A program made the position numbers and the translations under genes. The notes under the pieces are model-generated. The model saw only the letters and a program-made list of their open reading frames with translations. It was not told the DNA's origin and did not search any database. Shown here piece after piece: positions 3,036 to 24,600 of a stretch of 64,000 nt of DNA. The stretch comes from an uncultured Phycisphaerales bacterium (lineage in GTDB: Bacteria; Planctomycetota; Phycisphaerae; Tepidisphaerales; Tepidisphaeraceae). The stretch lies in contig CAVWLP010000003.1 of the NCBI GenBank assembly GCA_963755915.1, forward strand, positions 448,001 to 512,000, in the 5' to 3' direction. Numbering within the stretch: the first letter of the stretch is position 1; every line of letters begins with the position of its first letter.

Positions 3036-3518
3036 CCCACCATTGGCTTGCGGCAACCGCCGAAAGCCAAGGTCGATAACCCAATCTCCTGTGCCTCAAA
3101 ATGGCCGGTTTTGGCGCGCCCTCAATTGGCCGGTTTTGCGCGCCCCATGACAGCGAATCGACTTCACCCCCGCAGGAGGCGCTCGCGAATGAAGAGCGAG
3201 AGATGCTCTGGCGGATTCTCTCCGAATTGCCACAGCGATATCGCGAAACGATGGTTCTCTATTACCGGCAGGGACAATCGACGGCGGCGGTTGGATGATG
3301 CAAAACCCAAAACAACCTGATCTTACGACTGCCAGTAAATCGTTCCGTTCATTCCGAACATTGCCGTTCCAGCAAAATGGAACGGCGCGTTTCTTGGCGG
3401 CAGTGTCGGAGGTTCGGATCGACGTAATGTTCTTCGGTCCAAGTTGCGCGATGAACCCATCGTTCGCTAACTCGGTGAGTCGAACGAACAGAGGTGGGAA
3501 ATGAGATGCACGGCGAGT

Positions 3519-4227: not shown

Positions 4228-4571
4228 TTTCGGGGTTGTCCTCCATCCCGTGTAGCAGAAGCGGTTTCGGCGAATTTTGCCTCTACCTCAGCGAGCCCCT
4301 TTTCGATCGTATCAAGATCCTCCTGGTACTTGGCCTTTTTCCGGGCGTTCTCATTGTTGATCTCGGCCAACTTCTCCTGGAGTTTTGCAACATCATCAGT
4401 GCCATATTTCTCTTGAGCCTGGGCCTTGAGTTCGTCCAGTCGCTTCGTCGCGCTATCTCGCTGCGTTTCGGCCTGAATCTTCTTTCTATTCAGATCCTGG
4501 TATCGCTGCTGAAGCTGTTCGATGGTCTGCCCGCCGGCATTGGCGGGTATTTTTGCGTCCGTTTTAGCCAT
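4224..4571 (-). CDS. Small coiled-coil protein
   Basis: 115 aa, helical and charged, overlapping both neighbours. Confidence 0.8.
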   Translation of the reverse strand: MAKTDAKIPANAGGQTIEQLQQRYQDLNRKKIQAETQRDSATKRLDELKAQAQEKYGTDDVAKLQEKLAEINNENARKKAKYQEDLDTIEKGLAEVEAKFAETASATRDGGQPRK

Positions 4572-5517: not shown

Positions 5518-6967
5518 GGAAACCTCCGACGCATGAACCGGCATGGAGGACGATCTGATTGGGATCGAGCTGGCCACCACACGTGGGGCATAATTGCTGC
5601 TGTTCGGCCCAAGTCCGCAATTGATGTTCAACTTCTCGAAGCGCTTGCTCGGCTTGCACGAAATCTTGCCTACGCGAGGCAATAGCCGCTGTCGCACCGG
5701 CTAGGTCGCGGATTGTCGCCTCGATTTCGCGGGTGTCCGCCATATCCGGCGCGGCCACCAGGGCGGCCAATTGACTGTGAATGACCTCCAAGCGCCGGAG
5801 TGCCGCCGTCGCTTGCGTTAAGGCTTGCACGTCCTGCGTTGGCGAAATCTCATCATCCAATTCGGGTGCAGTTGCCAACGGGCGTAAGATTGTTAGTTGT
5901 TGCTCCGACGCAGTCACGGAATGAGTCAGCGTAGCAATCTGTGCGGCAGTTGTTTGCAAGGTTGCGACCTCGATGATCGTGGGGGGTGGGATGAGTTCGC
6001 AGGTTGCGGCGCACTGACCGTCCAGACGGAGCGCTACGAGCCGAGCAGACTGTAAATCGCGGATGAGTTCTATGAGCGGTCGGTTGTCTTTGGTATCAGG
6101 GCACATTTGCAGTGCCGAGAGGGAAACGGCCCGATTGGTCTGCAATTCCACGTCCAATTCCGTGCCGGATATCGCCCCGATGGCATCTTCTAACGGCTGA
6201 GTATCTGCGAACTTCGGCGGCAACATCAACGCCTGAAACGCCATTGCTTCGGATTGGCGATGGTCCACCAGTGCGCTCCACTGGTCCAACAACTGAATAT
6301 CCTGCGCGAGTTGTCCGATACGTGATGCCAACTGTCCAAGTTCCTCGTGCCGCGACTCTACTTGTCCAACGCTGATTCCAATCTGATCCGTAGCTGCAAG
6401 CACCGCGAGATCTATTGCCAGCTTTTCCGCCCTGGCCTCCAGTTGGATACGTTCTCGGCGAGCGTCCCCCATCTTCTGCTGGTGCCGCTTCTGCATCTCG
6501 ACCAGACTCGCCGCGTCGGACGAAGAAGCAAAAAACTGGGCTGCGTGAGAACCGGGTTTGTCCAACAAGAACACGGGCGATTTCTGTTCGCCGAAGTGGA
6601 TATCAAACTCTCGATTACCTTCGGCTACGACCTTTGGCAATCGGAGCACGTCGTGAAGGCTCGCGGGGATGGCGTTTCGTTCAAGCCTATCGAACAACTG
6701 CCCGTCGATGGTATATCTTGGAGAATTGTTCTTGCGGCACCACTCAACGATGTGACCGTCATCGGTTTCGACAATAACTGAGCATTCCCTTTCATTGTGG
6801 CGAGTGACGTAGGTCGAGTTATCGTTGTGACAGAGAATCTGAAGCGCCGCCACGACGGCGCTCTTGCCACAGTTGTTGGGTCCTACCAGCACGGTCAGGC
6901 CATCCGCTGGTTCGATGACCGTGCGGGCGTGTGACATGAAGTTGACTAACTCGATGCGCCGAATCAC
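5510..6967 (-). CDS. SbcC/Rad50-like ATPase, N-terminal half with coiled coil and zinc hook
   Basis: IELVNFMSH, Walker A GPNNCGKS, Q-loop GEQ and C-terminal CPTCG. No Walker B. Confidence 0.85.
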   Translation of the reverse strand: MIRRIELVNFMSHARTVIEPADGLTVLVGPNNCGKSAVVAALQILCHNDNSTYVTRHNERECSVIVETDDGHIVEWCRKNNSPRYTIDGQLFDRLERNAIPASLHDVLRLPKVVAEGNREFDIHFGEQKSPVFLLDKPGSHAAQFFASSSDAASLVEMQKRHQQKMGDARRERIQLEARAEKLAIDLAVLAATDQIGISVGQVESRHEELGQLASRIGQLAQDIQLLDQWSALVDHRQSEAMAFQALMLPPKFADTQPLEDAIGAISGTELDVELQTNRAVSLSALQMCPDTKDNRPLIELIRDLQSARLVALRLDGQCAATCELIPPPTIIEVATLQTTAAQIATLTHSVTASEQQLTILRPLATAPELDDEISPTQDVQALTQATAALRRLEVIHSQLAALVAAPDMADTREIEATIRDLAGATAAIASRRQDFVQAEQALREVEHQLRTWAEQQQLCPTCGGQLDPNQIVLHAGSCVGGFHA

Positions 6968-7076: not shown

Positions 7077-7140
7077 AAGACACAGTCTTATCCGAAAAAC
7101 CACTCGGTGGCTTGAATTAATGCGACGCTGGAAGAACGCG

Positions 7141-10100
7141 GTGTCCATTCAAGTGGGCCGCGTCGGCCTCCGCGGCAAGTCTTCAAGCGGCAACTGGCGG
7201 GAGACGGCGAAGGTGTCCATTCAAGTGGGCCGCGTCGGCCTCCGCGGCGGCGATGCCGGGGGGCGGGTTTTTCATAAACGCCTCGTGTCCATTCAAGTGG
7301 GCCGCGTCGGCCTCCGCGGCGATGGAGCGTGGAACTGCCCTCAGGTCGCTATGCAGTGTCCATTCAAGTGGGCCGCGTCGGCCTCCGCGGCTTCCAATTG
7401 GAGGTGCGAAGTGATTTCCTTGTTCAAGTGTCCATTCAAGTGGGCCGCGTCGGCCTCCGCGGCGTTTCGGTTTATACGGACAATGGCGGCAATGCGATGT
7501 GTCCATTCAAGTGGGCCGCGTCGGCCTCCGCGGCCACCATGTTCGCGTTAGCAAAGGATGATGATGCAAGGTGTCCATTCAAGTGGGCCGCGTCGGCCTC
7601 CGCGGCGGCCAAGCGGGCCGGGATTCGTCCCGAAACGCTTCAGTGTCCATTCAAGTGGGCCGCGTCGGCCTCCGCGGCGTGGCGAAGGTGGAGAAGCAGC
7701 CGGCGTTCAAGGGAGTGTCCATTCAAGTGGGCCGCGTCGGCCTCCGCGGCGACCATTATAGAACGAGTTGGAAGCGGATGCGCCCGTGTCCATTCAAGTG
7801 GGCCGCGTCGGCCTCCGCGGCTTAATTGCATCGGGGTTATTCATGGACGCGAAGATGTGTCCATTCAAGTGGGCCGCGTCGGCCTCCGCGGCTCGCGTAT
7901 CCGGTCCGCGTATCGCTAGATTGGTCGCGTGTCCATTCAAGTGGGCCGCGTCGGCCTCCGCGGCAATCTAGATGGATCGGCTAACAGGGTTCGGACGTTG
8001 TGTCCATTCAAGTGGGCCGCGTCGGCCTCCGCGGCAGGGAATTGCAAAGCCAAGGGGTTAACCCAACCGACCGGTGTCCATTCAAGTGGGCCGCGTCGGC
8101 CTCCGCGGCGCCGGGGCCGTGACGGAAATTGCAAATGGGGATTATGTGTCCATTCAAGTGGGCCGCGTCGGCCTCCGCGGCGTTGTGGAGATGAGGACGC
8201 ATCTGGCCGGTGCAAGAGTGTCCATTCAAGTGGGCCGCGTCGGCCTCCGCGGCATCGCGACAGAGCGCGAGATCGAGGGCGGGGAATATGTGTCCATTCA
8301 AGTGGGCCGCGTCGGCCTCCGCGGCTCACTGATACGGCACAGTATGTTAACGGTGTTGTGTGTCCATTCAAGTGGGCCGCGTCGGCCTCCGCGGCCGATA
8401 ATGAAAACATTCACTTTCAAAACAAGGTGATGTGTCCATTCAAGTGGGCCGCGTCGGCCTCCGCGGCCCTGGGGCTGGCTTAAAAACCACATCAAGATCA
8501 GTTGTGTCCATTCAAGTGGGCCGCGTCGGCCTCCGCGGCAAACTACCGCTCCGGGGATTGAAGCGTTTCGCACCCGTGTCCATTCAAGTGGGCCGCGTCG
8601 GCCTCCGCGGCCGTAACGGCGGCTTATGGCCGCAACAATACCCCACGTGTCCATTCAAGTGGGCCGCGTCGGCCTCCGCGGCGTCGTAACAATGCCTCAG
8701 CATGGTCCTGAACATCGTGTCCATTCAAGTGGGCCGCGTCGGCCTCCGCGGCTCAAATATCTTATTTCGCTCTTTTTTTCTTAAGTCGTGTCCATTCAAG
8801 TGGGCCGCGTCGGCCTCCGCGGCAATCCGTCGAATGCGGCATCACCACGTTCGACAGCGTGTCCATTCAAGTGGGCCGCGTCGGCCTCCGCGGCCTGTAG
8901 GATTAAATTGCGTATCTATTCCGTCGAAGGTGTCCATTCAAGTGGGCCGCGTCGGCCTCCGCGGCTCCGACCGCTGCAGCGCTTCGGTGTGATAACGGAT
9001 AGTGTCCATTCAAGTGGGCCGCGTCGGCCTCCGCGGCGCCAATTAACCGCACTCACCAACGCCAGCCTGGTCAAGTGTCCATTCAAGTGGGCCGCGTCGG
9101 CCTCCGCGGCATAAAGAGTTTGGAAATTGAGTAACCAGCAGTATCTCGTGTCCATTCAAGTGGGCCGCGTCGGCCTCCGCGGCTCAAACGCCAAATCCTT
9201 AAACCAACGAGCTTCAAAACGTGTCCATTCAAGTGGGCCGCGTCGGCCTCCGCGGCGCTGTCGTGCCTGTTGTGTTGGTGGCTGATTGTGGGTGTCCATT
9301 CAAGTGGGCCGCGTCGGCCTCCGCGGCGGATCAGTCTGAGCGTCTTCTCGGTGTTCGTATGTTGTGTCCATTCAAGTGGGCCGCGTCGGCCTCCGCGGCA
9401 GATCGACGAAGCCATCCCGGCAGGAGGAGCAGCAGTGTCCATTCAAGTGGGCCGCGTCGGCCTCCGCGGCACAAACACACAGTATACGGCCACCACAACG
9501 ACCGCAGTGTCCATTCAAGTGGGCCGCGTCGGCCTCCGCGGCAGAAGACGGCTGATTACGATACACAGCCGGGCCCAGTGTCCATTCAAGTGGGCCGCGT
9601 CGGCCTCCGCGGCCAGGATGGCAAGGTTCGTAGTTCTTCTGATAAGTCTTGTGTCCATTCAAGTGGGCCGCGTCGGCCTCCGCGGCGCGTAAGGAATTTG
9701 GGATTATTCGTGTTGCAAGGTTGTGTCCATTCAAGTGGGCCGCGTCGGCCTCCGCGGCAGGTGGCTGGTGAGCCAAGTAAGTCAATGCCTTCAGTGTCCA
9801 TTCAAGTGGGCCGCGTCGGCCTCCGCGGCTTCAATATCTTTTTTATATGTTCTAATATTCATTAAGTGTCCATTCAAGTGGGCCGCGTCGGCCTCCGCGG
9901 CACTATCGTCCGATATCTCCCCCAAAAAGGAGAAGGTGTCCATTCAAGTGGGCCGCGTCGGCCTCCGCGGCTTCGTGCCGAAGGCGGGACATGGAAACAG
10001 CAAGTTGGTGTCCATTCAAGTGGGCCGCGTCGGCCTCCGCGGCGCCCATTAGTAGCCATATCTAAACTCCGATATTAAGTGTCCATTCAAGTGGGCCGCG

Positions 10101-10970
10101 TCGGCCTCCGCGGCGCAAGCTGGAAAGGTGAACCGTTTGCTCCAGTACCAGTGTCCATTCAAGTGGGCCGCGTCGGCCTCCGCGGCTGGGAAGTGTCGGA
10201 GAAGATGCCGTACAAAAAATAGTGTCCATTCAAGTGGGCCGCGTCGGCCTCCGCGGCCTCGGATGGCTCGGTCGTCTGCTGGAAATGGCAGTGGCGTGTC
10301 CATTCAAGTGGGCCGCGTCGGCCTCCGCGGCACCGCGTGAGGAGCAGCGGCTCGGAGACGCTCGTGTGTCCATTCAAGTGGGCCGCGTCGGCCTCCGCGG
10401 CCGGCAGATTGATAGCGAGCACGGATCGGTGGCACAGTGTCCATTCAAGTGGGCCGCGTCGGCCTCCGCGGCAAATGTGAACCGCAGGCGTCGCCACGAT
10501 GAAGCCAACGTGTCCATTCAAGTGGGCCGCGTCGGCCTCCGCGGCTGCTGCAAAGCATCGCCGTTTCAAACAGGGAATGCGTGTCCATTCAAGTGGGCCG
10601 CGTCGGCCTCCGCGGCACCGGGACGATTATCGCTGAGGCAAATGGAGGGGCAGTGTCCATTCAAGTGGGCCGCGTCGGCCTCCGCGGCCGTGGAAGCCGC
10701 ATGGGAACGTGCGAGCAACACAGTGTCCATTCAAGTGGGCCGCGTCGGCCTCCGCGGCTAGTGCGAAGTAATACATTCGTCACTCCTGTAAGTGTGTCCA
10801 TTCAAGTGGGCCGCGTCGGCCTCCGCGGCATACCTGGGTGCGTGCAACATCCAGCCGACGTTCCGTGTCCATTCAAGTGGGCCGCGTCGGCCTCCGCGGC
10901 CTCATCTCAGGCTCATATCTCATTACCTATTAGAGTGTCCATTCAAGTGGGCCGCGTCGGCCTCCGCGGC
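7141..10970 (-). CRISPR. CRISPR array: 54 repeats of 36 bp, 53 spacers of ~34-38 bp
   Basis: Repeat on the - strand is GCCGCGGAGGCCGACGCGGCCCACTTGAATGGACAC, with no variants noticed (manual count). Orientation inferred from the GACAC 3' end and tracrRNA pairing. Confidence 0.98.
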
Positions 10971-11225
10971 TGCCGCCCTCGCAAACCCCCGAAAACAAGC
11001 CACTTGTGAGGGCTCTTGCGAGTATAACAGATTTTGACGCAATCGAACGGCCATTTCGGGGACTCCTGACATCCATAAAACCGCGAGAATCGGCTTGTTT
11101 TGGGGCATTGCGAGCGTGCCCTGGACCCCCATTCACCACTGTCGCACTCGCGGCCGAAAGTACGACAGTACCAACCGAGCTGCGAACTGGGGCAGGCCGC
11201 AGAAGCCAACTTGTCAAAGAACGAT
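10971..11225 (-). promoter_or_regulatory. CRISPR leader
   Basis: Apparently non-coding segment between the tracrRNA and the first repeat. Confidence 0.7.
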
Positions 11226-11319
11226 GGCCCAAAGGGCCAACGCGGACCTGTTGAATGCCGAGTGCCAAGCCCATTAAAGGGGAAGACACGTACTCGGAGG
11301 TGATACCGCCTATAGCGGC
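11226..11319 (-). ncRNA. Cas12b tracrRNA
   Basis: 5' hairpin CCGC-UAUAG-GCGG; CCGAGU/ACUCGG stem enclosing GUGUC (pairs with repeat GACAC) and a CCC/GGG hairpin; anti-repeat CAUUCAACAGGUCCGCGUUGGCC (19/23 identical to the repeat complement). Confidence 0.85.
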
Positions 11320-11328
11320 GCAGTCACT

Positions 11329-14300
11329 TTACCACGGGGTTACTGACGCTTCAACGGGCGCATCTTCGCGAGATAAGTGCGCTCGGCGAAGCAATGAAAC
11401 AACCCGGCACCGGACATCATTCCAATATTCAGCAGTGCCTCGCCAAGGGGAATTTGTGTCAATCGGCGAAGCCGAAATATCCCGCCAGAGGTTCACGATC
11501 TCGCGTTCCTTTTTGCCGGCCTTGGACCGGCCCGACTTCTTGCCGGTTTTTGGATCAGGCGTTTCGAGATCGCTCGCCTTAACTGGTACGAGGAAGAGAT
11601 CCGATGGAACGATGAAGCTTCCCTTGGTCTTCTCGGCAAGTGGCGTGTAGGTCGCTGACTCGCATGGAATGAACCACCACTTGCCGGAAAAATCGGGGTC
11701 GAGCAGCGCCTTCATGCCGACATTCGCGGCGGCGTTGAGGTCGGCTTGCAACCCCTTCGCAGCAGGCGAGCACGGGTCGGCTGAGACGAAGAGTTCGCCG
11801 CCATTCATGGGGATGCGGATCGCGGGCGCAAGTTTACGTTCGGAATCCGATTTTGAGGACCACTGTTTCTCGATCGTCACAAAAAATCGATCGCGGGCAT
11901 CACCCTTGTCAGCTTTTTCTTGAGCGACCTTGGCTTGTCGCCGCCACCAGGGTTTGGTCATGAAATCAATGACCGGCACATCAGCGCAGCGGATACCCGG
12001 CGCACCTGTGCGTGAATCCTGGCGAGACGTGTATCCGGCCTGGACTTCGCGGAGATGGAGTCCATGAAGTTGACAGGCTTCCGAAAGATACTTTTTGACC
12101 TTCGATGAGGACCATGACATCAATTGCCTGTTCTCGCGGCGCGTTTGAAGTTCATCGGGACGATAGTTGGTGAGGTTCTCGATCACGACCGCATGACAAG
12201 GAGCGTATTTTGCGGTGGGTTCCTCCACCCGCACCCATTTCATAAGCGTCGATCCATCCGCATTCTTTCGTCGCGTCTTGACCTGCTTCCAATGCCCGCC
12301 AAGCCCTAGCGCCGAACCCGCAATCCGGCTCGCAAGTTGCTTAACGCGCTGCTCGCGCATCTGCTCCATCGCATCAAGGATGGATTGCGCAACGCCAGCG
12401 TTTGTTTCACCCTTCTCCGGTGCGCCGCGTGGCTTATCGGGCTTGGCGCGCATCGCGAACGCTTTGTGCAACTGATAGAGCGACTTCATTGTGGCAATGC
12501 GCGTGAGCGACAGGCCGCCGACGTTCTGCTTCCAGCCAACATCTTCCTTATCGACGCCGGGCAAACGCCGACCCATGATCCAGTCGGTGAGCCAGCGAAA
12601 CTGTGCATATAGACCGACAGCCTTTTCCTTCGTGTCATGATTCGCAGGACTTCCATCATCTGCCTGCCAGCGATTGAGCCAAGCTGCGTGGACGACGCTG
12701 CGATTGGCTGCGGCAAGTTGCTCTGCGACTGATTTGAGTTTCTCCAGCAGTACATCATCATCCTTGCGACGCTGCTGGCGGGTGGGTCCTTCGGCAGTCT
12801 CATCGCGAGGCTTAGGGTCTTCGACCCGCCATCCGTTTGTCACCGTGGCGACGTGTTGGTTCCACAGATCACGCGCGGGCTTGTCATTCCACTTAAACTC
12901 ACTTGCAAGCGCGTGCCAATCGAACAGCGCGTCGGTCATTAGCTTGATATGAGCGGTATCGCCAGGTGTGAAGGGTTTCTCACTGCCGCCGATGCCCGAA
13001 ATGGTCTTGGTTTCCAGATCGAGCGCGTAGGCAATTTTTGCCCGGCGGGTGTGGCGTTTCAGGCCGAGTGCGGTGATGCGCACTGCACGGCCCATCAGCT
13101 CGTCCACTTCCCTTCCCTTGTCGCGATCTTCATCAGCCACCAAGCCAAGATCCGCCGCAAGTTTGGCGACCATCGCGACTTCATTGACCTGGCCCTTTTG
13201 GGAAGCCGCCCGCGCCGCTTTGTCCTCGCCAGGCAGCTTGATAAGGAATTGCCGATCGAGCCGGGCCCACGGAGCGGGATGTGGTGTGCCGTCGGATAGT
13301 TCGTCCGCTCCAATCCGGCGATAAATCGTGGTGCGAACCTTTCCGTTTTCGTCTGTATAGCGCGTATGGAGATAAAGATTCTCCGAACCTGCACCACCAG
13401 CGGATACTATCCTTCCGGAGATTTCTTCTGATAAATCGGCTAATGAAAGCGTCTCCCACACAGCACACGCCGCGGCGAAGCGATGGCCGAGGTCCACTGA
13501 AAGAACTCGAAGGTTGGGCAGACGGGATAGGATAAGTTTAGCGTGGCCGGAACGGGCGTCATTCGTTTGATGCTTGAGCGCGTATTCACCGCCGCGAGAT
13601 GCAAACGGTTTGGCCGGAGCGTCTTCAGAAAATTTTGCGATGTAATCTATCCATGGCCCAGCCGGTTGTAGCTTGGCGGAGAAGGAGACGAGCCAACGGA
13701 TGTGGTCGCGCATCTTTTTCGCTTTTGCATCCCACCCATGGTCTTTGATGTGTTTGGCGATCTTATCAAGCTGTGAACGTGGTGCTTGCAGCCGGCCGTT
13801 CCAGTCGGCCTGATTGAAAACGCCCAGAATGCTCACCGGTGACTTTTCATTCGCGCCCACGGCTGCGCGACCCAGGCGGTCGGCGCGGGTCACGTTGATT
13901 GCGGCATCGCCCGTCGATCGGTTTTGTAGCCCCAGATCTTTCGTCAGGCGTTTGCACGACCAGCGCATTGGAATGCTGTTGTCCAACTTCCCCCCATCCC
14001 ACAGCCCCATCGAAAGGGCGTGACGAGAATCCAGCCATGTGACCTGTTCGCGGGCTTCCCGTAAATCAGCCTCCGCTCGCTTAAGCTTTAATTCGGCGTC
14101 GGCCTGTTTCTCAGGTGTTTTGGTTTTGGCGAGCCGTTCCTTCGTTTTCTCCAACTCTGTCGCCCGCCGCGCAATAGTGGCCTTTGCATCAGTCAGTTTC
14201 GACGCGGCATCATGCACGGCGAAATGGATTTCCCACCGCGAATTGCCGAAGTCGCAGAAGACCGGGTGCGACAACGGATCGGGATGACGATACGCCGGCA

Positions 14301-16027
14301 CCTTGAATCGCTTCTGTTTGGCGAGCGCGTCGGTGGCGGTCGCGTAGTCGATCAGCGGCTGGGGCATCGCTTCGCCGTTCATCCGCCAGACAGCAATGGC
14401 ATCATCGGCGGCCAGCGCCTCAAAAAGCTGGATGTCACCAAACTTGTCGATGTCCGGATCGGCCTGCACGTTGCGGGCGACGGCAATGCGATCCTCGACC
14501 GTTTTACAGCTCGAACCACTCCATTTGGCGACCACTTCTTTCCAACCACCCACGGCGCGTCGGCGAATTCGATAGGCATCAATTGCTCCGGTTGCAGTGG
14601 AGCGATCATCGCAAAACCTCGCCAGCCACACGTTGATCTCGGCGGGCACCTTTTCGATCTTCGCCGCATCGATTTTGAACTTCTGCCGTTCGGATTCAGC
14701 GCGTTTGATCCACGAATGTCCGATCGACACTCGCCGGGCGGCGTGGTCGAGCATGACGGCAAACTCGGAATGCCGCGCTGGTCCGCCTTGTTGGAGATAG
14801 GTAAACCCACACGCTGATTCGACTTTTTCGAGAATCTTGTCGGACCACGGCGCCGGCCCTTGCCGCCGGTATTGGACTTGCACTTCTCACAGTCTTCGGT
14901 GGCGACGGTCTTCAGTTTCGTGAGGTCGTCCCCGGAAATCAGATCGACTCTGGATTCCCAAGCCTTGATAATGTTCCGCGTCGCACTCTTGTAGCCTGGT
15001 CCGCTGATCAGGCTGAGAATGCCGACGGCATCACTTGACTCAGGAGAAAATGCGACGAGCGACTCTGCCAGCGAATGGAGTGCTTCCGACCCTAATGCAA
15101 ACGCGGTTGCGTTGGCCGCCCATGAAGCCATCGCGTCGTAGGCTTTTGCCATTTCTGAAAAATCTGCCCCCTTGCCTGTGCCGAATCGGCTGCTAAGCCA
15201 TTGGCCGGCCTTCTGCACGAGGTCTTTGGCTTTGTCATCTTCCGCCGGTGGGTCGTCTTCGGAGTTATCAGGTGGATTGATCGGCGCAAGATAAGATTCC
15301 CGGGCGCCAAAGAACGGTTCGAGCAAGTCCCACACCTCTTCGCGCGTCAGCGATGGCCCCACTTGTTCCTGGGCGGCAGCAAACATGGCACTTCGGTTGA
15401 TCCACACGGCATCGTCACGAATCGCTGCCGAAAGGGATGGTTCACAATCGGCGATCCAGCTTCCAAAATCGGCTCCGGTTACGCCGCGATCGGCAAGAAT
15501 CTTCCGAAGCGCCCCGATCACTTTTTCATCCCTCTCGGATTGCGTTTTTTCGCCGCTAGCCACGACGAACTTCTCGTGCGAATCGTGTTGCTTTGGCGAC
15601 GATTCCACGCTTAGCCACGACAGGGACAGCAAAATGCGGCGATCGCGGATGCGAGCGCTCCGCCGGCGTTCAATCTCCGCGATGGCATCCCGCTCGGTGG
15701 GATCGGTGTCCTCCCTTTTTTTTCCCTTGATTAAATCTTTCAACGTGTTCGCGGTGAGTTTTTTCCCTTCGACCGACTGGGAATCAAAGCACGGTTCATC
15801 GGCCAACGAATGATCCATCCCGCCGCGCAGAGTTAGCAGCCAATCGCCGAAAACTTTGGCTCCATTGTTAACGGCCTCATGCGTTGCCCAGACGGCTGCG
15901 CGCAACCGTGATCCGTTTTGTCAACGCCGCGAAGTCGAAGCGTGTACGCCCGCTGCGTTTGAAATAACGCTGGAATAGGGCGATCCACGGTGTTTGAGTT
16001 TAGCTGTTTGGCTGCGGACTGCGGCAT
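11329..16027 (-). CDS. cas12b: Type V-B effector Cas12b, ~1,560 aa (frameshifts near 15905 and 14850)
   Basis: N-terminus QRAYTLRL...AVWATHEAVN; RuvC-I LRVLSVDLG, RuvC-II VVIENL...ENRQLMSWS, YTSRQDSRTGAPGIRC and RuvC-III QADLNAAAN. Adjacent to array, tracrRNA and cas4-cas1. Confidence 0.9.
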
Positions 16028-16130
16028 TTGTAGTCATCTCCCGTATTACTTGACCAACGCAATTATCAGGGCCAGAATTGCGAGATTCGGGTACTGTCTC
16101 CATTCGAGTTTTTCCGTACCTTGTATCAGC

Positions 16131-16273
16131 CCAGAAGAGCGGGGGGACCGCAGAACGGCGCGAGAGCTTCTAGAATCTCGCTTCCCTGGCGGCCGCCAGG
16201 CTCATCCTCCGCTCTTCTGGCCCGATAGTTTGGCCCTCATGCCAAAATCAGAAATAGTCGCCCAACTTATCGG
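16131..16273. ncRNA. Candidate structured RNA upstream of cas12b
   Basis: 12-bp stem 16131-16142/16209-16220 closing three hairpins, plus a CCGATA/TATCGG stem containing a TTTGGC/GCCAAA hairpin. Confidence 0.45.
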
Positions 16274-16291
16274 TCGCGCGGGCTACGGCGA

Positions 16292-16342
16292 ATTTGAATC
16301 GCTTGGGCTATGTTTGTCAAATAGGGCAACCCGACATAAACT
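16292..16342. promoter_or_regulatory. Overlapping divergent sigma70-type promoters
   Basis: + strand: TTGTCA (16314-19), N17, TAAACT (16337-42), ending 6 nt before the sgRNA-like element. - strand: TTGACA (16320-15), N17, TCAAAT (weaker -10). Confidence 0.6.
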
Positions 16343-16348
16343 TGATTG

Positions 16349-16467
16349 GCCGCTATAGGCGGTCACAATATCGCTGAACGTGTCGTCCCCTTCAATGGGA
16401 TATGCACAGCGGCGCGAGAGATTAAATCGCGTGACACATGTCGGGTTCGGCTGCCCAACTGCCGAAC
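16349..16467 (+). ncRNA. Natural single-guide-like RNA (tracr paralog + repeat 3' end + guide)
   Basis: Shares GCCGCTATAGGCGG, ACGTGTC and CCCCTT(C/T)AATGGG with the tracrRNA; continues with a GCGCGA/TCGCGT hairpin, GACAC, guide ATGTCGGGTT and a 3' hairpin GTTCGGC/GCCGAAC. Confidence 0.75.
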
Positions 16468-16641
16468 TATTAGATGACAACCATCCCGCTTTCCGCGTCA
16501 GGCAGACTCTCGCCCAACATGTCACGGGGTGCGCCAAAACCAGCCAGGGCGGGGCGCTTCAAAACCGGCCAATGTGCTGACGTATTCTATACCGCATCCG
16601 TTCTATCCGACGCAACTGTTCCTTGAGTTATTGGTCCCCGT

Positions 16642-17532
16642 TCACGCCGTCTGGCCGGCGGATACCCCCACATCAGAAGACAACGGCGGCTCTGTCACGG
16701 TGTCTTCCGGGGGGGAGCACCCTTCATCGCCGGCGGTACTCCGCCGTCCTTTTGGATTTGTCTTTTCCGGTGTCCCGGATTGGCCTGCCGTGAGCGAAGT
16801 CGAATGGCCCCCATGCCGAAGGCGGTAGCTCTTGCCGGTGATGTTGATGATCGTGGCGTGCTGCAGGAACCGATCCAGAATGGCCGTGGCCGCCGGCACG
16901 TCGCCGATCAGCTTGGCCCAGTCCTCCAGTGGACGGTTGCTGGTCATCATCGTCGAGCGGTTCTCGTGCCGGCGCATGACGATCTCCAGCAGGCATTCGC
17001 CGCTGCGCCGCGGAAGCTGCTTCATTCCCATGTCGTCGATGATAAGCAGATCAGGCTTGAGATACCGGGCCAGCGTCTTGTCCTGGGCTCCCAGATCCTC
17101 GTCGCCTAAAAAGTCGCGGGCCAGGTCGAAGATGGATCGGTACAGGACCACCAAGCCGCTCTTGATCGCCTGGTGTCCGATGGCCTGGGCCAAAAACGAT
17201 TTGCCCACGCCGGGCGGACCCAGCAAGAGCACGTCACGTTTGTCACGAATGAACTGGCCGGCGGCCAGATCGTGAATCTGTTTGCGTTTGATGGAGGTGT
17301 TGAAGGAGAAGTCGAACTCGTCGAGGTTTTTGGTGTCGCGGAACATCGCCGCCTTGACGCGCCGGCCGATCTGCCGGCTGGATCGGACGTTCAGTTCATC
17401 CTGAAGGATCAGTTCCAAAAACTCACTGTGGTCGAGCCGATTGCCGGCCGCCTCGCTCAGGCGAACTTCAAGGCTGCTCGCCAGACCTGAAAGCCGAAGT
17501 TGCTTGAGCGTCTGCATCAACGAAGGTCTCAT
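16642..17532 (-). CDS. istB: IS21 helper ATPase IstB
   Basis: Same protein as copy 1 except one H/R difference. Confidence 0.95.
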   Translation of the reverse strand: MRPSLMQTLKQLRLSGLASSLEVRLSEAAGNRLDHSEFLELILQDELNVRSSRQIGRRVKAAMFRDTKNLDEFDFSFNTSIKRKQIHDLAAGQFIRDKRDVLLLGPPGVGKSFLAQAIGHQAIKSGLVVLYRSIFDLARDFLGDEDLGAQDKTLARYLKPDLLIIDDMGMKQLPRRSGECLLEIVMRRHENRSTMMTSNRPLEDWAKLIGDVPAATAILDRFLQHATIINITGKSYRLRHGGHSTSLTAGQSGTPEKTNPKGRRSTAGDEGCSPPEDTVTEPPLSSDVGVSAGQTA

Positions 17533-19330
17533 GGGGTGGACTCCCTTCGGCTCTGCTCAGGGCAGGCCTGTAAAGGTTGTGCGGCAGGCAAAGCCTCCGC
17601 TTGGGTGATTGCGTCGCGTACGAACTGTCCGTAATCGGCCAGTCCGCGGATGATTGGATGTTCCTGAACAAACTCGAAGTGTTGTTGAACCGGCGCGCCG
17701 TTTTGGTGTTCGATGAGCTGCCGCAGGGAGCGCAGGTGATACGCGCCATGCCCCAGAGCAATCTCGCAGGCTCGTTCCACGGCCGGTCGCGGCTGCTGAT
17801 TGGCCAGCGACAGCAGCCCCATCAACACGCGCACGCCTTCGATGCCGCGATGCTGAAGCATTGACTGCGCCACTGCGTGGCGTGCGGCCCGATGCATTCG
17901 ATCCGCTGGAGAAGCCAGGTCGTTCCACGCTCGATGCCGCTGATCTTCTCCGGCAGGATATGGGCGTCTTGCGTCGAGAACCTGCCCGGCGGACGCTGCG
18001 CGTGCAGAGCGATCGCACGCATCTTCTGATCGAACAGCCGGACCGTGTGCCCGTCCCACCGCGCCCAGACCCGCTGGCCCAAAAACTCCGGCGGGACCGA
18101 ATAGTACGCCCCCTTGATCTCCACGTGCCCGTCGCGGTGAACACTGCGCAACGCCTCGGTGAAAAGATCGAATCGCACCGGCGGCAGAGCCAACAGTGCC
18201 GGCTTCTCTACCTGCTCGAAGACTTCCTTCACCTGCCGCCGCGTCGTGCCGTGGATGCGCGTGTCGGCCACGCTCTTCTCCCACGTCAGCAGATGCGCGT
18301 TCTGATCCGAGAGCGAGGCGAATTGCCGGCCTTTGAGAGCATTGCTCTTCACATAGCCGATGCCCCGCTCGATCTTCCCCTTGTGCCGCGGCGTGTACGG
18401 CTTGGTGGGCAGAATGGCGATTCCATAATGTTCGGCGAACGACCGGACCTTGGGACACAACTCCGCCTCGAACCAGTCCGCCCGCGTCACCGCCGCGCGA
18501 AGATTGTCGATCACCAGCGCTGACGGCATCCCGCCGAAGTGCGTAAAGGCATTTTCCAGACAACGCAGAAAATCATCGGTCGTCTGCCGCTCCACCGCCT
18601 CGGCGTACCCCTTGCGGCTGTGGCTCAGCACAATGCGGAAGACCCAGGTTGCTTTGCGTTTGCCGTCAGGACCGACCAGGGCGCACCCCGGCCGAAGTCC
18701 ACCTGCGCCTCGGCTCCCGGCTCGCATTCCATCCGGCGAAAGGGCGCCGGCGCGGCAGCCGAGAGCTTCTTGATGAACCGGCGCACGCTGTAATAGCTGC
18801 CGGCATAGCCGTGATCGCTGGAGATGTCTTGATAAATCCGCTGGGCCGTCAGCCCGGCTTCCAACTTCTGAACAATGACCTCACGCCAGGGCGATGCCGT
18901 ACTGACCGACCCGATCGGCGCGCCGGATAACCCGGTGGGCGCGCTCTCCGAGCCGCCTGCGGCGAGCACCGTCGAGCCGCCTGCGGCGAGCACCGTCGAG
19001 CCGCCTGCGGCGAGCACCGTCGAGCCGCCTGCGGCGAGCACCGTCGAGCCGCCTGCGGCGAGCACCGTCGAGCCGCCTGCGGCGAGCACCGTCGAGCCGC
19101 CTGCGGCGAGCACCGTCGAGCCGCCTGCGGCGAGCACCGTCGAGCCGAGGGGCGCGCTGGCCGGTTTTGAATCCGATCCGGGCGCCGCAGGATCGCCGCC
19201 CGACAACCGGATGTGGCGTCCAACGGTCTCCCGGTGAACGCCGAGTTGGCGGGCGATGTTCCGATTGGACCAGCCGCTGCGCAAGTGCCAAAATTGCTTG
19301 TACTTCCGCCATCTTGAGTTGATTGGCCAT
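17529..19330 (-). CDS. istA: IS21 transposase IstA (frameshifted in the sequence)
   Basis: Same motifs as copy 1. Confidence 0.9.
18950..19147. repeat. 24-bp tandem repeat (8 units) inside istA
   Basis: Same unit as 2727-2852, with three more copies. Confidence 0.95.
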
Positions 19331-19698
19331 CCCACCATTGGCTTGCGGCAACCGCCGAAAGCCAAGGTCGATAACCCAATCTCCTGTGCCTCAAAATGGC
19401 CGGTTTTGGCGCACCCTCAATTGGCCGGTTTTGCGCCCCCATGACACCCAACACGGTTGCCGCCTCTCTTGCGGCCTCCTCGTTGCTGCCAAGGTCCACG
19501 ATAAGGAGCTGGTCTTCCTTGAGATTGAGCACTTCGCGCGCCGCGTTTTCCAGCCGCACACGGTCGATGGCCTTGAGTGTGCAGTAGAACACGGAATACT
19601 GCCACGGTTCGCCGTATGCCTTCATGACTTTGTGGATTCGACGAAGGCGCTTGTCATTGCGAACGTCATAACAGACCAGATAGCACCGGCGCATGGTT

Positions 19699-21504
19699 TT
19701 ACCTCGTGGTCAGAAAAGCCAGCGTCGGCACCTCGCCAAGAAGCCACGCGGCCACAAGACGGGCATGCAGCATGAGCATGCGGCGATAACTTAGCCGGTA
19801 CTCGAATGCCGGGTGCTTCACTTCCGTGTCCATTCGTCGGCCATAGGCAGCGAAGAATCCTTTTCGTCCTGCGTCGGTTAGAGCGCAGCCGGAGGCGGTA
19901 TTAAGAAAATGCCCCTCGGTCAGTTCCCCGCGGTTGAATGCCGAGACGGCGATCGAATCGGCGATGAGCGGTCGGAATGGTTCCATTAGGTCCAGGGCGA
20001 GTGCGGGACGGCCCGGTCGCGTGGCGTGCAGTGCTCCGAGTGTCGGCTCCAGGCTTGCCAACCGACACGCGACCACGCATTCATTGGCCAGCATCGAATA
20101 GGCAAAGGAAAGAACCGCGTTGACTGGATCGGGTGGTGGACGGCGTTGTCGGCCATTGCTGTCGAATCGAGCAGCGATCTCGGCGACGCCTTTCTTAAAC
20201 ATGCCAGCAAAATGGGCAAAGTAGATCGCGGCGGCATTGCCTTCATGCCCACGCAGTTCGTCCAATGTGGTTGATCGCTCGGCACCAGCAACGCAGGTTT
20301 GAAGATCAGGCCCGACCCGCGATGGCAGCGCCGAATGATTTCGCATCAGCAGCGTGCGTTGATTAGCGATCTTGGCGACCGTCACTGCACGAGCCAATTC
20401 AAGCGTTTTTTCGGGTCGATCCAGAATGCGGATTTGGGCACCGCGTACGGCGGCGCTGACTGGCCCCAACGGGTCCATCATTGCCACCAGCCGACCTGCG
20501 GCGGTCAGAAAAGCAACCGGCACTTCGTGATCGGCGAAAACGGTTAGTGCTTGGGTCGATATCTGAACAGCGCCCAAAACTGCCAGCGATTCCATGTTGG
20601 CAAGCGGTAGGTCTCGGACCAGTTCACCATCTTTGTCGATGACCCTCACGGACTGGCCACGAACGCCAACGCGGATGCCCTCGCGCATAAGCACAACATG
20701 GATACCGTCGTCGCGCGGCGGCCAGAGTTTTCGCGGTGTAAGTTGCTCATCAACGGACTGACCGTTGACGGTGAGCGCCGTGAGCCGCTGGTGATTGATC
20801 TCGTCCGGCAAACAGATCGGCTGGAGCGAACATCGCGGGCAACGCGGATCATTGACCAGTGGCGGCGGACGCGGTCCTTGTGCGTCCCGCTTAGCCGCTT
20901 CTAATTCAGCCAGTGCGTTGCGTTTCAATGCCTCATCAACCACCACGCGAAGTTTGAGTTTCTCTGCGGCATAATAGAGATACGCTTCGGTGACCGTGTA
21001 TCCGGCCTCTTCAAGCAGAATCGCTTGCAAGCCGATTTGTACCCGGTCAGTCGGCCAAGGTTCTGGCCCTGGTAGCAACCGAGGTTCCTCCATCATCTCA
21101 TCAGTCGGTTCAGCGATCTCACCGTAGCGCTTCGGTTTTCCCTTGCGATACTCAACTGGAATCGCCGTCGTGCCCTGGATTTCGGCCAAGTCGAGCGTCG
21201 CCGTCAGGCCGAGCCGATCACTCGTGAGCACGAGGCTGCGTACCGATTTAGGTCGCTCTGGATCAGCCTCGGCAGTGGCTTCTTCTAATTTCTCAATGGA
21301 CTTTTGCCCCTTTTTGCCATTCTTGCCGTTTGATTCCAATGCCGGCGGAGCCTCGCTCGGACGATCTACACGGCGGTGGGTGCCCGCGCCCTGTTCCGTG
21401 TCGGCGCTGGGCAGAAAGACTCCCTCGACTGTCATGTAATAGAACAGGCGCGGACAATAAGCGTGTTCCGCGACGCCGCGGGATGGCCAGTGAACGGATT
21501 CCAT
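19699..21504 (-). CDS. cas4/cas1: Cas4-Cas1 fusion
   Basis: Cas4: YCPR, DLAE, PVEYRKG, CPRCSLQPIC. Cas1: LRGHEGNAA, RRPPPDPVNAVLSFAY, GALH, LALDLMEPFRP. Confidence 0.95.
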   Translation of the reverse strand: MESVHWPSRGVAEHAYCPRLFYYMTVEGVFLPSADTEQGAGTHRRVDRPSEAPPALESNGKNGKKGQKSIEKLEEATAEADPERPKSVRSLVLTSDRLGLTATLDLAEIQGTTAIPVEYRKGKPKRYGEIAEPTDEMMEEPRLLPGPEPWPTDRVQIGLQAILLEEAGYTVTEAYLYYAAEKLKLRVVVDEALKRNALAELEAAKRDAQGPRPPPLVNDPRCPRCSLQPICLPDEINHQRLTALTVNGQSVDEQLTPRKLWPPRDDGIHVVLMREGIRVGVRGQSVRVIDKDGELVRDLPLANMESLAVLGAVQISTQALTVFADHEVPVAFLTAAGRLVAMMDPLGPVSAAVRGAQIRILDRPEKTLELARAVTVAKIANQRTLLMRNHSALPSRVGPDLQTCVAGAERSTTLDELRGHEGNAAAIYFAHFAGMFKKGVAEIAARFDSNGRQRRPPPDPVNAVLSFAYSMLANECVVACRLASLEPTLGALHATRPGRPALALDLMEPFRPLIADSIAVSAFNRGELTEGHFLNTASGCALTDAGRKGFFAAYGRRMDTEVKHPAFEYRLSYRRMLMLHARLVAAWLLGEVPTLAFLTTR

Positions 21505-21673
21505 TATTCATCTAATCGGCGGTATTGAGAGCCTGCTTATTGACGCGCGAGCAGCAAAGACAGCGGAATTTCGCCATTCCAAGATTTTCTCGGACGTTGG
21601 GGTAGGTTGGTAATGTAATCGGCGGCTCCTTGAGCAACGACCCCATGTGTGGTGATACTGGCGAACGAAAGGC

Positions 21674-24600
21674 ATGGACACGACGGCATGGCGCAGGGGA
21701 AATCCCCACAGCTTCTCCTGGAGTTCAACGCGGTTCGCAACAGCGATCTTTTCTCCAACCATTGGCTGGAGAATCGCTTGCCCCTCGAACCGGAATGGAC
21801 CGAGGCGCGCAGAGGCATACGCCGCCATAGAGACGCTGACGGAACTTTGGAAAGTCCAAAAGAAACGTGTCGAGAAATACGACGGTGAGCAAATGCTCGA
21901 AGAGCAGTTCATTCAGCCGGTGCTACGCGCACTCGGCTGGAAGGACCGCATGCTCTATCAGACGTTTCTGCGCGGGCGCAAGCCAGACTACGCGCTCTTC
22001 CTTGATGACGGCCAGGTCGAGACGGCGCTCGCGAAGGGAAAGAATCATCCTGATTTTTGGAAGAGTCCGGTGATGGTCGCGGATGCAAAGGCTTGGGCCA
22101 TATCACTGGACCGCAAGGCGACCGTGGAAGCCAAGCGCGAATACCCGCCGGAGCAAATTGAGTGGTATTTGAACAACAGTCAGCTCGACTACGCCATTTT
22201 GACCAATGGCCGGTTGTGGCGGCTCGTCCCCAGGCAACATGATCCTGGCCAAGCCCGTTTTCAGACTTACCTAGAAGTTGATTTGCCACAACTCCTTGAC
22301 GAACGAATGGAGGTGCTCGATTCCAAGGTCTGGCCGGGATTCGACGACTTCCTGCGTTTTTTTCTGTTCTTTTCGCCGGTGGCACACCGCGAAACCGCCG
22401 AACGTCCCTCGCTTATTCGGCGCGCACGCGCGGGCAGTAGCGAGTACAGATTGGGGGTCGGGGAAGGTCTCAAGCAGCGAGTATTTGACGCATTGTCGCT
22501 TTGTGTCGAAGGGTTCGTACGGCATGAGGCGAACAAGTTGACTTCGTCGCCCGCCGACATCGAACTTTGTCGGCAACAAAGTTTCACACTCCTTTACCGG
22601 CTTCTCTTCGTGCTATTTGCCGAGGATCGAAAGCTGCTCCCATACAAGATCGACCGGGCCTACACAGACAACCGATCGCTTGGACGATTTCGTGACGAAA
22701 TCGCCAAGACGTTGGACCGCCTCGACCAAGGAAAGGACGTGGAGTTTCCTGAAAAACAGGTTCAATATTGGCCCGATCTGTTATCGCTCTTCGACCTGAT
22801 TGACGCCGGTGCCGCTCGCTATCGCGTACCCGCATACAACGGCGGCCTCTTCGATTCCGAACAGCATCCATTTCTTCGCGACAAAGTCCTTCCAGACGGA
22901 TATTTGGCCCGTGTCATTGATCGTCTGAGCCGTGCACCTGACCCGAAGCATCCCCACCTCGGGCTGTTTCGGGTCGATTACCGCGATCTCGCGATCCAGC
23001 ATTTAGGCAATGTGTACGAAGGGCTTTTGGAACTTCGTCCAAAAATCGCCGAGTCTGATCTGGTTGTCATTCGCACCACGAGCGCGAGACGACGCGGAGA
23101 AATATTTGCCTGCCGACGAACCGCTACCCAAGGGTTACGAGGCTACCGGTCAGCGATACGAAAAAGGTTCGGTGTACCTCGTGACCGACAAGGGCGAACG
23201 GCGCGCTTCCGGCAGTTATTACACACCGGATCATATTGTTAGCTACATCGTCGAGCGGACCCTTGGGCCGATTCGCGAGGGAATCGACCATCAACTGACA
23301 AGCGATATTGAGCGCACGAACAGGAATTGAAGCGTGCCCGTGGAGAAAATCGCGCACAGTTGGTTACTCGGATAGACACGCTCAAAGGCGATTTCGATGA
23401 TCGGCTGCTTCGGTTGCGGGTGCTCGATCCAGCCATGGGTTCTGGTCATTTCTTGATTCGGGCCTGCCAGTATTTGGCGGAGCAGGTCGCCACAAATCCA
23501 CGCGCAAAGGATGCTTCCCATACTGGCGGTGCTGAAGAATCGACGCTGGTTTACTGGAAGCGACGCGTCGCGGAGTCGTGTCTCTACGGAGTCGATCTCA
23601 ATCCGATGGCGGTGGAGTTGGCCAAACTCGCACTTTGGCTGGAAACCGTCTCGGTGAACCAGCCACTCACATTCCTCGATCACCATCTTCGTCACGGCAA
23701 TAGCCTCGTCGGCACGAGCGTCGAGTCCTTGGGCGTACTGCCCGGAACGGAACTCGTCAGCAACCGTTTTGAGCAGCAAGTTAAGCAACGTCTGCCGCGA
23801 CTCCTTGATGCGTTGGTCATGATTCGGCGCACGCCGTCTGACACGGTTGAACACGTGAAGGAGAAAGACAAGCTGTTCCGACGAACCTTTGAGCCGGTGC
23901 GCCAACCGTTTCTATTGTCGGCTCATGCCTGGTGTTCGTTCTTTTTTGCAAAGGCGGAAGAGCGGCTGAACAACACCCAATATGACGGGTTGATTGATGC
24001 GCTGGGGCAACCGAAAAAATTTGAAGCGATAGCATCATCTCCGCCGTGTTCAATAGCGATTCAGACGTGCGGGCCGAACGGCATCGCCGCGTTTCATTGG
24101 GAACTTGAATTTCCGGAAGTGTTCTTCGGTGAAGCCGGGTATCGGAGCGACCGGGGATTTGACGCGATCATTGGCAATCCACCGTATGACGTACTTTCTG
24201 AAAAGGAGACCGGCCGCGATCTGTCGCAACTCAAGGAGTTTATCGACAGGATGCCGGTGTATGCACCGTCCAAAGTTGGCAAAAACAACCTTTACAAGTT
24301 GTTTATTTGCCGGGCGATTTCACTTCTTGCGCCAGCGGCGCGATTGGGCTTCATTACACCGATGGCCGTTCTGGGCGATGAAGCCACTTCAAAGATTCGC
24401 CGCGAGATATTTCGTATCGGCCGCTTTCAGGCAATAGAAGCCTTTCCGCAGAAGGATGATCCCAATCGCCGCGTGTTTCGCGACGCAAAGCTATCGACAG
24501 CCGTTTTCATTCTACAACGCGTAGATGACGCTGATGGTCGGAAACAACCCTTTCAATCGCAGGTACACCCGGCGGACAGAATCGACGAGGTATCGGCCAT

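Follow-up and report, generated by a model that had tools for sequence, protein, structure and literature searches.

The stretch between positions 16,131 and 16,291 of the window (the 64,000 nt of an uncultured Phycisphaerales bacterium analysed here) lies upstream of cas12b in a type V-B CRISPR-Cas locus, which is read on the minus strand. According to our analysis, the stretch is best read, with a probability of roughly 65%, as an upstream cas12b leader in which the relic of a small membrane-protein gene and an imported hairpin would lie between a self-matching promoter and cas12b. The relic is the decayed homologue of a 59-aa gene found intact in sister loci, the hairpin has been inserted into it, and the leaders of the sister loci lack structure. 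In its intact sister form the gene is a candidate for a CRISPR-guarded toxin or a toxin-like sentinel. The initial annotation of this stretch had proposed a structured RNA with two coupled mini-ORFs (open reading frames), acting either as the CreT-like, repressed toxin of an addiction module protecting cas12b or as a structured 5' leader of cas12b.

A decayed small-protein gene in front of cas12b

The single-guide RNA (sgRNA)-like form of the trans-activating CRISPR RNA (tracrRNA) that adjoins the stretch was found at three other places, L014 and L024 in genome contigs and L052 in metagenome contigs; the metagenome scan for this form returned 1 locus. The pattern of guide-matching site plus promoter, searched in the genome contig collection, gave 10 stretches, consisting of the 2 known sister loci and 8 from unrelated taxa. 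The three sister loci share a common order, namely the cas2 stop, an antisense sgRNA-like gene, a GTTT-ATGTCGGG site, a promoter (TTGACA-N17-TC(C/A)AAT), a 59-aa ORF, 17 nt, and the cas12b ATG. The ATG of the small gene follows the -10 box by only 9-10 nt, and the small-gene mRNA in L014 (2117-2128) and L024 (2117-2128) is therefore predicted to be leaderless or nearly so.

The L014 product is MSKGRRSLPAPQPRPNDDLVEISAFGAKARLSGGGLSVVVLALVIALLAILALIIALVK, with 59 residues. The sister proteins have a basic, proline-rich N-terminus followed by a C-terminal membrane helix, and their maximum 19-residue hydropathy is 3.3-3.5. Between L024 and L014, 35 of the 59 codons differ, and since 19 of these differences are synonymous, the ORF looks coding. 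Few relatives were found. A word-indexed search returned three proteins, and a hidden Markov model (HMM) search of 1.84 billion representatives returned only the protein's own cluster. Apart from a sub-threshold match to a plant domain, there was no Pfam family at E <= 0.1, and the nearest clusters in the ESM Atlas, all unnamed, scored <= 0.86. When the family profile was run against 401 genomes of the phylum, it gave weak matches inside large frames (E = 1e-4 to 1e-2), which were taken as chance. The V-B locus of G119, which belongs to the same genus as the source genome, has cas2 about 45 nt ahead of cas12b and lacks both the sgRNA-like element and the small gene; neither of them was seen in the stretch read from G011.

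The window contains one decayed copy of this gene:

16046..16291, minus strand: decayed homologue of the 59-aa gene, recognised by pairwise DNA alignments, frame translation and tblastn

Translated in the ancestral frame, the window reads ..SP*PARPISWATISDFGMRAKLSGQKSGG*AWRPPGKRDSRSSRAVLRSPRSSGLIQGTEKLEWRQYPNLAILALIIALVK*, and the part of the frame behind the TGA starts with AWRPP and ends with NLAILALIIALVK*. Several lesions have accumulated. About 36 nt, including the start codon, were deleted after the -10 box. A TAG (16285..16283) stands in frame where L014 has CAG (Gln), and a second in-frame stop, TGA (16204..16202), was brought in by the palindromic element described below. The first half of the helix was replaced by about 120 other bases, a larger diverged block that includes the palindromic element. 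The last 12 codons are intact (LAILALIIALVK*, with the stop at 16048..16046). In tblastn, sister residues 22-33 align to 16255..16220 with 67-75% identity and residues 48-59 to 16084..16049, with 100% identity for L014; the two segments lie 171 nt apart in the same frame.

The maximum 19-residue hydropathy of the window copy is 1.23, compared with 3.3-3.5 in the sister proteins. This value is below the need of a membrane helix, and the helix is lost. The family profile did not detect the window copy at E <= 0.01. Among the last ten sense codons and the stop, six codons differ from L024 in a manual count, of which five changes are synonymous and one replaces a stop with another stop. These mostly synonymous C-terminal changes suggest that the decay was recent and that the small gene in the window died not long ago.

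Promoter, guide-matching site and sgRNA-like RNA

The elements upstream of the relic, together with the canonical tracrRNA to which one of them is related, are as follows:

16320..16292, minus strand: promoter-like site facing cas12b, TTGACA (16320..16315)-N17-TCAAAT (16297..16292)
16340..16328, minus strand: guide-matching site, TTT (16340..16338) followed by the 10-nt match ATGTCGGGTT (16337..16328)
16349 to about 16470, plus strand: sgRNA-like RNA gene, a tracrRNA paralogue with a repeat-like hairpin, GACAC and a pseudo-spacer from 16438
11222..11321, minus strand: canonical tracrRNA just past the cas12b stop, with ends inferred

The -35 box, the 17-nt spacer and the TC(C/A)AAT hexamer are the same in all four loci compared, and minus-strand transcription is predicted to start near 16285. 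The cas12b ATG lies 257 nt past this predicted start, and no other minus-strand promoter is listed in between; in the sister loci the gap between the small gene and cas12b is 17 nt. The distance from the start of the guide-matching site to the start of the -35 box is 17 nt. Counted from the TTT-proximal end, the contiguous match to the sgRNA-like RNA is 10 nt in the window, 8 in L014, 8 in L024 and 10 in L052, so that the self-match layout is kept in 4/4 loci with such an RNA. We take the protospacer-adjacent motif (PAM) of the window Cas12b to be that of other V-B systems. The initial annotation had placed the stretch behind a targeted promoter, and this placement holds: the promoter overlaps a site matching a guide-like RNA, and the stretch takes the slot in which a CRISPR-repressed toxin would be expected.

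The canonical tracrRNA has, on the minus strand, a 5' hairpin (11319..11306), a core (ACGUGUCUUCCCCUUUAAUGGGCUUGGC, 11289..11262) held in the stem CCGAG/CUCGG, an anti-repeat CAUUCAA (11257..11251) that pairs with the repeat UUGAAUG, and a terminator-like hairpin at about 11239..11225. In G119 and G011 the core is kept and the anti-repeat has changed along with the repeat (AGUCGAUC with GAUCGGCU, and AGUUGAUC with GAUCAACU, respectively). A widespread family of V-B tracrRNAs can be recognised by the core GTGTCNTCCCCTTNNATGGGNNNNGCAC; it is represented by 43 stretches in the genome contig collection (loci L009-L051) from Planctomycetota, Desulfobacterota, Synergistota, Bacillota and others. When these 43 stretches were pooled with the metagenome locus L052 and the two copies of the window, 40 distinct core instances resulted; in 39 of them the core is flanked by a stem of 5 bp or more with perfect complementarity, in 8 covarying variants. 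The exception, L016, looks like a chance match.

The sgRNA-like gene belongs to the same family. Positions 16349-16407 of the plus strand are 76% identical to the reverse complement of 11262-11319, and the 5' hairpin, the core and the flanking stem (changed to CGCUG/CAGCG) are kept. The anti-repeat is replaced by GCGCGA-loop-UCGCGU, which is followed by GACAC, the 3' end of a repeat, and then by a spacer-like stretch. With its tracrRNA-like part, repeat-like hairpin and spacer-like part fused, the RNA thus has the layout of a natural single-guide RNA rather than that of a mini-array. The gene lies about 60 nt from the minus-strand promoter and has a promoter of its own, TTGTCA (16314-19)-N17-TAAACT (16337-42), which is listed by the promoter scan and placed as in L014 and L024.

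Taken from this arrangement, we posit the following mechanism. The minus-strand promoter would fire near 16285 and transcribe the leader into cas12b. Cas12b loaded with the sgRNA-like RNA would bind the 10-nt match without cutting, by analogy to the 11-bp duplex of tracr-L and to the CreP target just upstream of the -35 box, and this binding would dampen the promoter of the leader and cas12b, an autoregulation in the manner of CreR and tracr-L. In the sister loci the same promoter would also drive the small membrane peptide, which may serve as a toxin-like sentinel upon failure of Cas12b. In the window, where the peptide gene is gone, the stretch would be an untranslated leader with a strong, probably incidental hairpin that may at most have a side effect on the stability or read-through of the cas12b mRNA.

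A further step is tentative, and we consider it less likely than not. The tail-anchored 59-aa peptide of the sister loci could be a toxin that is silenced by Cas12b and the natural single-guide RNA through the 8-10-nt seed, in which case loss or inhibition of Cas12b would free the peptide along with a burst of cas12b. The window would then represent a guard after the knockout of its toxin by deletion, nonsense codon and imported hairpin, with regulator and promoter surviving. The initial annotation had suggested the repressed toxin of an addiction module at this place. The slot was chosen rightly and the molecule wrongly, as the candidate toxin is the protein of the sister loci, which is dead here.

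The palindromic element and rival functions of the stretch

Three further features bear on the question of whether the stretch itself is functional, in addition to a promoter-like site on the opposite strand:

16131..16220, no strand given: palindromic element of about 90 nt, a perfect 12-bp closing stem round three hairpins
16240..16202, minus strand: mini-ORF1 (MRAKLSGQKSGG*; MRAKLSG...), an in-frame internal fragment of the decayed small-protein gene
16205..16170, minus strand: mini-ORF2 (MSLAAAREARF*), wholly inside the palindromic element and off the ancestral frame
16050-16078, plus strand: promoter-like site TTGACC-N17-CAGAAT, listed in the promoter scan with 9/12 and made of conserved codons for ...ILALIIALVK

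The stems, palindrome, hairpins and overlapping mini-ORFs described in the initial annotation were all recovered. The perfect 12-bp stem pairs 16131-16142 (CCAGAAGAGCGG) with 16209-16220 (CCGCTCTTCTGG) and encloses a 16-bp palindrome (CCTGGCGGCCGCCAGG, 16185-16200), a GCGAGA (16160-65) / TCTCGC (16176-81) hairpin and a small CCG/CGG hairpin. The stem extends imperfectly to 22-nt arms (16124-16145 / 16206-16227) that are 86% complementary. Inverted repeats of 12 nt or longer within 120 nt number 14 in the window, and the arms of the element are the second-longest among them; a long stem by itself is therefore not rare. Folded by itself, the 104-nt element reaches z = -4.1 on the plus strand and z = -5.1 on the minus strand, and on either strand 0/200 shuffles folded as well. 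The folds of the 257-nt minus-strand leader (z = -2.6, 2/200 shuffles) and of the 176-nt plus-strand stretch (z = -2.2, 3/200 shuffles) are moderately unusual. The leaders of L024 and L014 show no more structure than their shuffled versions (z = +0.3 and +0.9), and the fold is therefore not that of a conserved cas12b leader. Of the suggestion that this is a structured cas12b 5' leader, the position within the leader stands, and a conserved structure is not supported.

The element is not an assembly artefact, because short-read contigs of runs X2 (16096-16313) and X3 (16131-16281), from two other samples, match the window exactly. The X1 contig (15874-16428) equals the window except for one extra C after 15902; all three runs belong to a single study, in which X1 may represent the source sample. 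An exact search of the 6.6-Mb source genome gave no second copy of the 12-mer stem pair or the 16-mer palindrome, and, apart from short chance matches, blastn of 15906-16519 against the same genome (word 9, E <= 10) recovered only the tracrRNA paralogue. Rfam contained nothing relevant at E <= 1 for 9000-22000, and at E <= 10 the sole match in 16000-16520 was a snoRNA model (E = 4.1). ARAGORN listed no tRNA or tmRNA. Two regions, 16058-16208 and 16265-16415, are matched at about 97% identity by the RNA-library contigs X5, which come from a related strain in another study, are strandless and may be DNA carry-over; the uncovered parts carry no information.

Among the 141 genomes of the order that were searched (the source genome and 140 others), the only full-length relative of the element was found in G138, a genome of the same family (G138:C8:708288-708369; 77% identity over 84 nt, homologous to 16134-16217; E = 1.5e-6 for the G138 genome). 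A pattern scan of the genome contig collection for a third copy returned 11 stretches, of which only the one in G138 is related. Another 42 genomes of the order gave hits to the GC-rich palindrome that span 20-30 nt and were treated as chance. The G138 copy lies about 25 nt past the stop of a TIR-domain gene and ahead of an unrelated gene, with no CRISPR context. This neighbour (L066 397-1476, with the element at 1501-1582) encodes a CAP12/Pycsar-type TIR domain (PF10137, E = 1e-15), so that both known copies adjoin defence genes. The G138 stem is 15 bp long, and three outer-stem pairs have changed on both sides with the pairing kept. Both copies fold somewhat better in the sense of the neighbouring gene (-59.7 vs -54.4 and -48.6 vs -42.6 kcal/mol).

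Measured against the general definitions of miniature inverted-repeat transposable elements (MITEs) and repetitive extragenic palindromic (REP) elements, the element resembles them in its size of about 90 nt, its long terminal inverted repeat (12 bp perfect, 22 nt at 86%), its internal hairpins and its non-homologous sites in two genomes. It differs in that only one copy is present in the source genome and one in G138, in that no target-site duplication is visible at either copy, the flanks being inverted complements and not direct repeats, and in that the outer stem has diverged between the copies yet remains paired. On account of the single copy per genome and the missing target duplication, we consider it a rare hairpin that is probably mobile or recombined, and not a MITE. 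The initial annotation had named a dispersed repeat elsewhere in the genome as evidence against its proposal. None was found in the source genome, and a relative of the fold occurs at the unrelated G138 locus within the same family.

Several observations weigh against the stretch being a mere relic with an incidental hairpin. The homology segments are short, are not significant genome-wide and rest on synteny. From the ATG at 16240 to the conserved C-terminus, the old frame contains a single TGA, which has a chance of 1 in 3, and a read-through product is conceivable. Just three sister loci with five distinct proteins in all are at hand, because of which the conservation statistics are thin. 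The promoter scan omits the site at 16320..16292, since the second hexamer, TCAAAT, has a C at position 2. Finally, the element could have an RNA function of its own, because none of the 200 shuffles folded as well, the stem changes are compensatory and the fold is better in the cas12b sense.

This last point leads to the alternative that survives best, namely that the element acts in cis as a functional RNA within the cas12b leader, where it would set the output of cas12b as a stabilising or attenuating hairpin and would be retained for that reason. Besides a strong fold that is slightly better on the cas12b-sense strand in both copies, it can draw on the two-sided changes that kept the outer stem of the G138 copy paired, on the location of that copy in sense about 25 nt past a gene stop, like a 3' hairpin, and on the RNA-library contigs of the related strain that span 16058-16208. 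These contigs, however, are strandless and may be DNA, and with 2 known copies the covariation amounts to one comparison. The element is moreover absent from the three sister loci, whose leaders are unstructured, and no U run follows the stem on either strand, where the terminator scan lists nothing. We therefore consider such a role unlikely.

A functional RNA on the plus strand, driven by TTGACC-N17-CAGAAT and running antisense to the cas12b leader or into the sgRNA-like gene, is much less probable still. The promoter-like site noted in the initial annotation is present and scores 9/12, and two G-U and two G-C pairs are added to the stem when it is read as plus-strand RNA. On the other strand, however, the hexamers read as conserved codons (GTC AAG; ATT CTG), the sister loci have poorer versions of the site (GAGGAT, CAGGAT, compared by eye), the sgRNA-like gene has its own promoter, and both copies of the element are less stable on the plus strand.

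The CreT-like toxin proposed in the initial annotation would act through rare AGG and AGA codons of the mini-ORFs, which upon derepression would stall ribosomes or sequester a rare tRNA-Arg and so make the cell dependent on cas12b. The features on which it was built are present. The guide-matching site overlaps the promoter ahead of the stretch, the stems of the RNA are stable, mini-ORF1 and mini-ORF2 overlap at ATGA, and all three Arg codons are of the rare kind, with AGG as codon 2 of mini-ORF1 and AGG and AGA as codons 7 and 10 of mini-ORF2. In the source genome AGA makes up 3.3% and AGG 5.1% of the Arg codons, as counted from 2,332 stop-to-stop frames of at least 400 codons, some of which may be spurious. 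The CreT of Haloarcula reportedly has a strong ribosome-binding site, a start codon and rare codons directly after it. The rare codons of the window are neither in tandem nor directly after the start codon, no Shine-Dalgarno sequence precedes the ATG at 16240, and the GGAGG of mini-ORF2 abuts its ATG (16205) with zero spacing. Mini-ORF1 corresponds to the ancestral protein frame: it opens at an internal Met that L024 shares and closes at the TGA (16204..16202) contributed by the palindromic element. A single base separates its AGG from the AAG (Lys) that L024 has at this codon. The ATG of mini-ORF2 is missing from the G138 copy of the element. The same slot in the sister loci is an open protein gene, and nothing there is conserved as RNA. 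Judged by their sequence, the mini-ORFs seem to be by-products, the first a fragment of the old frame and the second an accident inside the insert, and without usable ribosome-binding spacing a CreT-like toxin appears very improbable.

Least probable of all is a shortened functional protein of 64 residues ending in ILALIIALVK, made from the ATG at 16240 by read-through of the TGA, as the single frame from 16240 to 16049 with its one stop and the solely synonymous C-terminal differences from L024 are set against a missing ribosome-binding site ahead of 16240, a basic and hydrophilic middle part (maximum hydropathy 1.23) and a family profile that misses the window copy at E <= 0.01.

Locus context, related systems and significance

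The remaining parts of the V-B locus and its neighbours are as follows:

11329..16027, minus strand: cas12b, in three frames in the assembly, with a C2c1 RuvC-like domain (PF22126, E = 2.3e-24)
7138-10970: CRISPR array of 54 repeats; the repeat in minus-strand sense ends ...UUGAAUGGACAC
16470..16519, minus strand: 3' end of cas2, separated by IS21 copy B from the rest of the gene
297-3152 and 16520-19446: IS21 copies A and B
21504..19699: Cas4/Cas1 fusion gene

The source genome was assembled to 6.6 Mb in 3 contigs, with 81% completeness and 8% contamination. The cas12b start is best placed at the ATG 16027..16025, with GGGAG just before it. In G119 the homologue is a single open frame of 1452 aa. 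The break of the window gene at 15902 is an assembly error, because the extra C of the X1 contig restores the first frame; a second apparent 1-nt gap lies near 14850, where no short-read contig covers the site. A search for related loci with the single Cas12b protein gave one weak, unrelated match.

IS21 copy B lies inside cas2 and is flanked by a 7-bp duplication, CCCAACA (16513-16519 / 19447-19453), and copy A has its own 8-bp duplication, GCGAATCG (289-296 / 3153-3160). A composite transposon formed by the pair was rejected, as the target duplications of the two copies are separate. Copy B exceeds copy A in length by 71 nt, and both contain internal runs of 24-nt repeat units (2667-2924 and 18890-19219), with 6 and 9 overlapping copies listed. 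In a further contig of run X1, position 16519 is joined straight to 19454 and what follows, so that the sample also contains a cas2 allele without the IS. The far end of the array is adjoined by genes for an AAA_15/AAA_23 ATPase (485 aa) and a metallophosphoesterase (377 aa) at 4564-6967 on the minus strand, which may be an SbcCD-like or defence pair. The V-B locus of G011 (L008, 10700-11250 and 2684-4090) has a fragmented cas12b with a duplicated N-terminal cas12b fragment upstream, a tandem repeat block based on 7 nt (11019-11185), and an array broken by about 1.4 kb.

Among known systems, the sister loci come closest to CrePA, a CRISPR-repressed protein toxin of the type I-F system of Acinetobacter baylyi ADP1, in which CreP, of phage origin, has 103 aa and a KilAC domain and stops cells from dividing, and CreA has two repeats (bioRxiv 10.1101/2024.01.05.574328). 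The sister loci and the window share with it a CRISPR-cas promoter with the -35 box just past a PAM-flanked partial match to an adjacent guide-like RNA, and the sister loci also share a protein-coding gene behind such a promoter inside the CRISPR-cas locus. They differ from it in that the gene encodes a 59-aa membrane-helix peptide without a Pfam family and without homology to CreP or KilAC, that the effector is Cas12b, that the guide is a fused RNA resembling tracrRNA and CRISPR RNA (crRNA), and that the effector gene follows within 17 nt. The window differs further in that its gene is dead, while the gene behind the promoter is open in L014, L024 and L052.

CreTA modules with RNA toxins are known from the type I-B system of Haloarcula hispanica and relatives (PMC8501985; PMC9458426), and CreT has been described as sequestering tRNA-UCU (10.1101/2024.01.05.574328). 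The window resembles them in a small element behind a promoter partly complementary to the guide and in rare Arg codons in short frames, and likewise in being a CRISPR-cas locus with a degenerate guide RNA gene adjacent. It differs in having no strong ribosome-binding site, no tandem rare codons, and frames that are relics of a gene and an insertion.

Autorepression of cas genes by CreR was reported for types I-B, I-E and V-A (bioRxiv 10.1101/2023.03.10.532045), and that by tracr-L, with an 11-bp match, for type II-A (described in 10.1101/2023.03.03.530964). The window has in common with these systems a guide-like RNA with a short match (10 nt here, 11 bp in tracr-L) to a promoter that drives, or here is predicted to drive, the effector gene, and with tracr-L in particular a tracrRNA form with its own repeat-like and spacer-like part. 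The regulator of the window differs in being a separate tracrRNA paralogue on the opposite side of cas12b. No V-B or Cas12b case of guide-like self-control or of a toxin guard was found in the accessible parts of the literature searched, most subscription journals being outside its coverage.

Hok, TisB and Fst are hydrophobic toxins of type I toxin-antitoxin systems. Judged by a general description of such toxins (PMC12737573), the sister protein is similar to them in its length of < 60 residues, its single membrane helix and its charged end. It differs in that neither the HMM search of 1.84 billion representatives nor Pfam nor the Atlas showed a sequence relation, and in that its control would be transcriptional, via Cas12b, and not by antisense RNA.

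Taken alone, the stretch is a pseudogene with a stray hairpin and thus ordinary. It points, however, to a small conserved V-B module consisting of an sgRNA-like tracrRNA paralogue, a seed match to the promoter ahead of cas12b and a tiny membrane-protein gene between them. RNA-guided self-control and toxin guards have already been described for types I, II-A and V-A. If the toxin reading is true, type V-B systems would have in this module their first guard of the CreTA/CrePA type as well as their first autoregulator of the tracr-L type. Should the sister peptide be toxic and repressed by Cas12b, CRISPR-guarding toxins would extend to a class 2, tracrRNA-dependent effector, the module would provide a natural single-guide scaffold of compact size as well as a cas12b cassette that limits itself, and the dead copy in the window would be a natural example of the loss of a guard.

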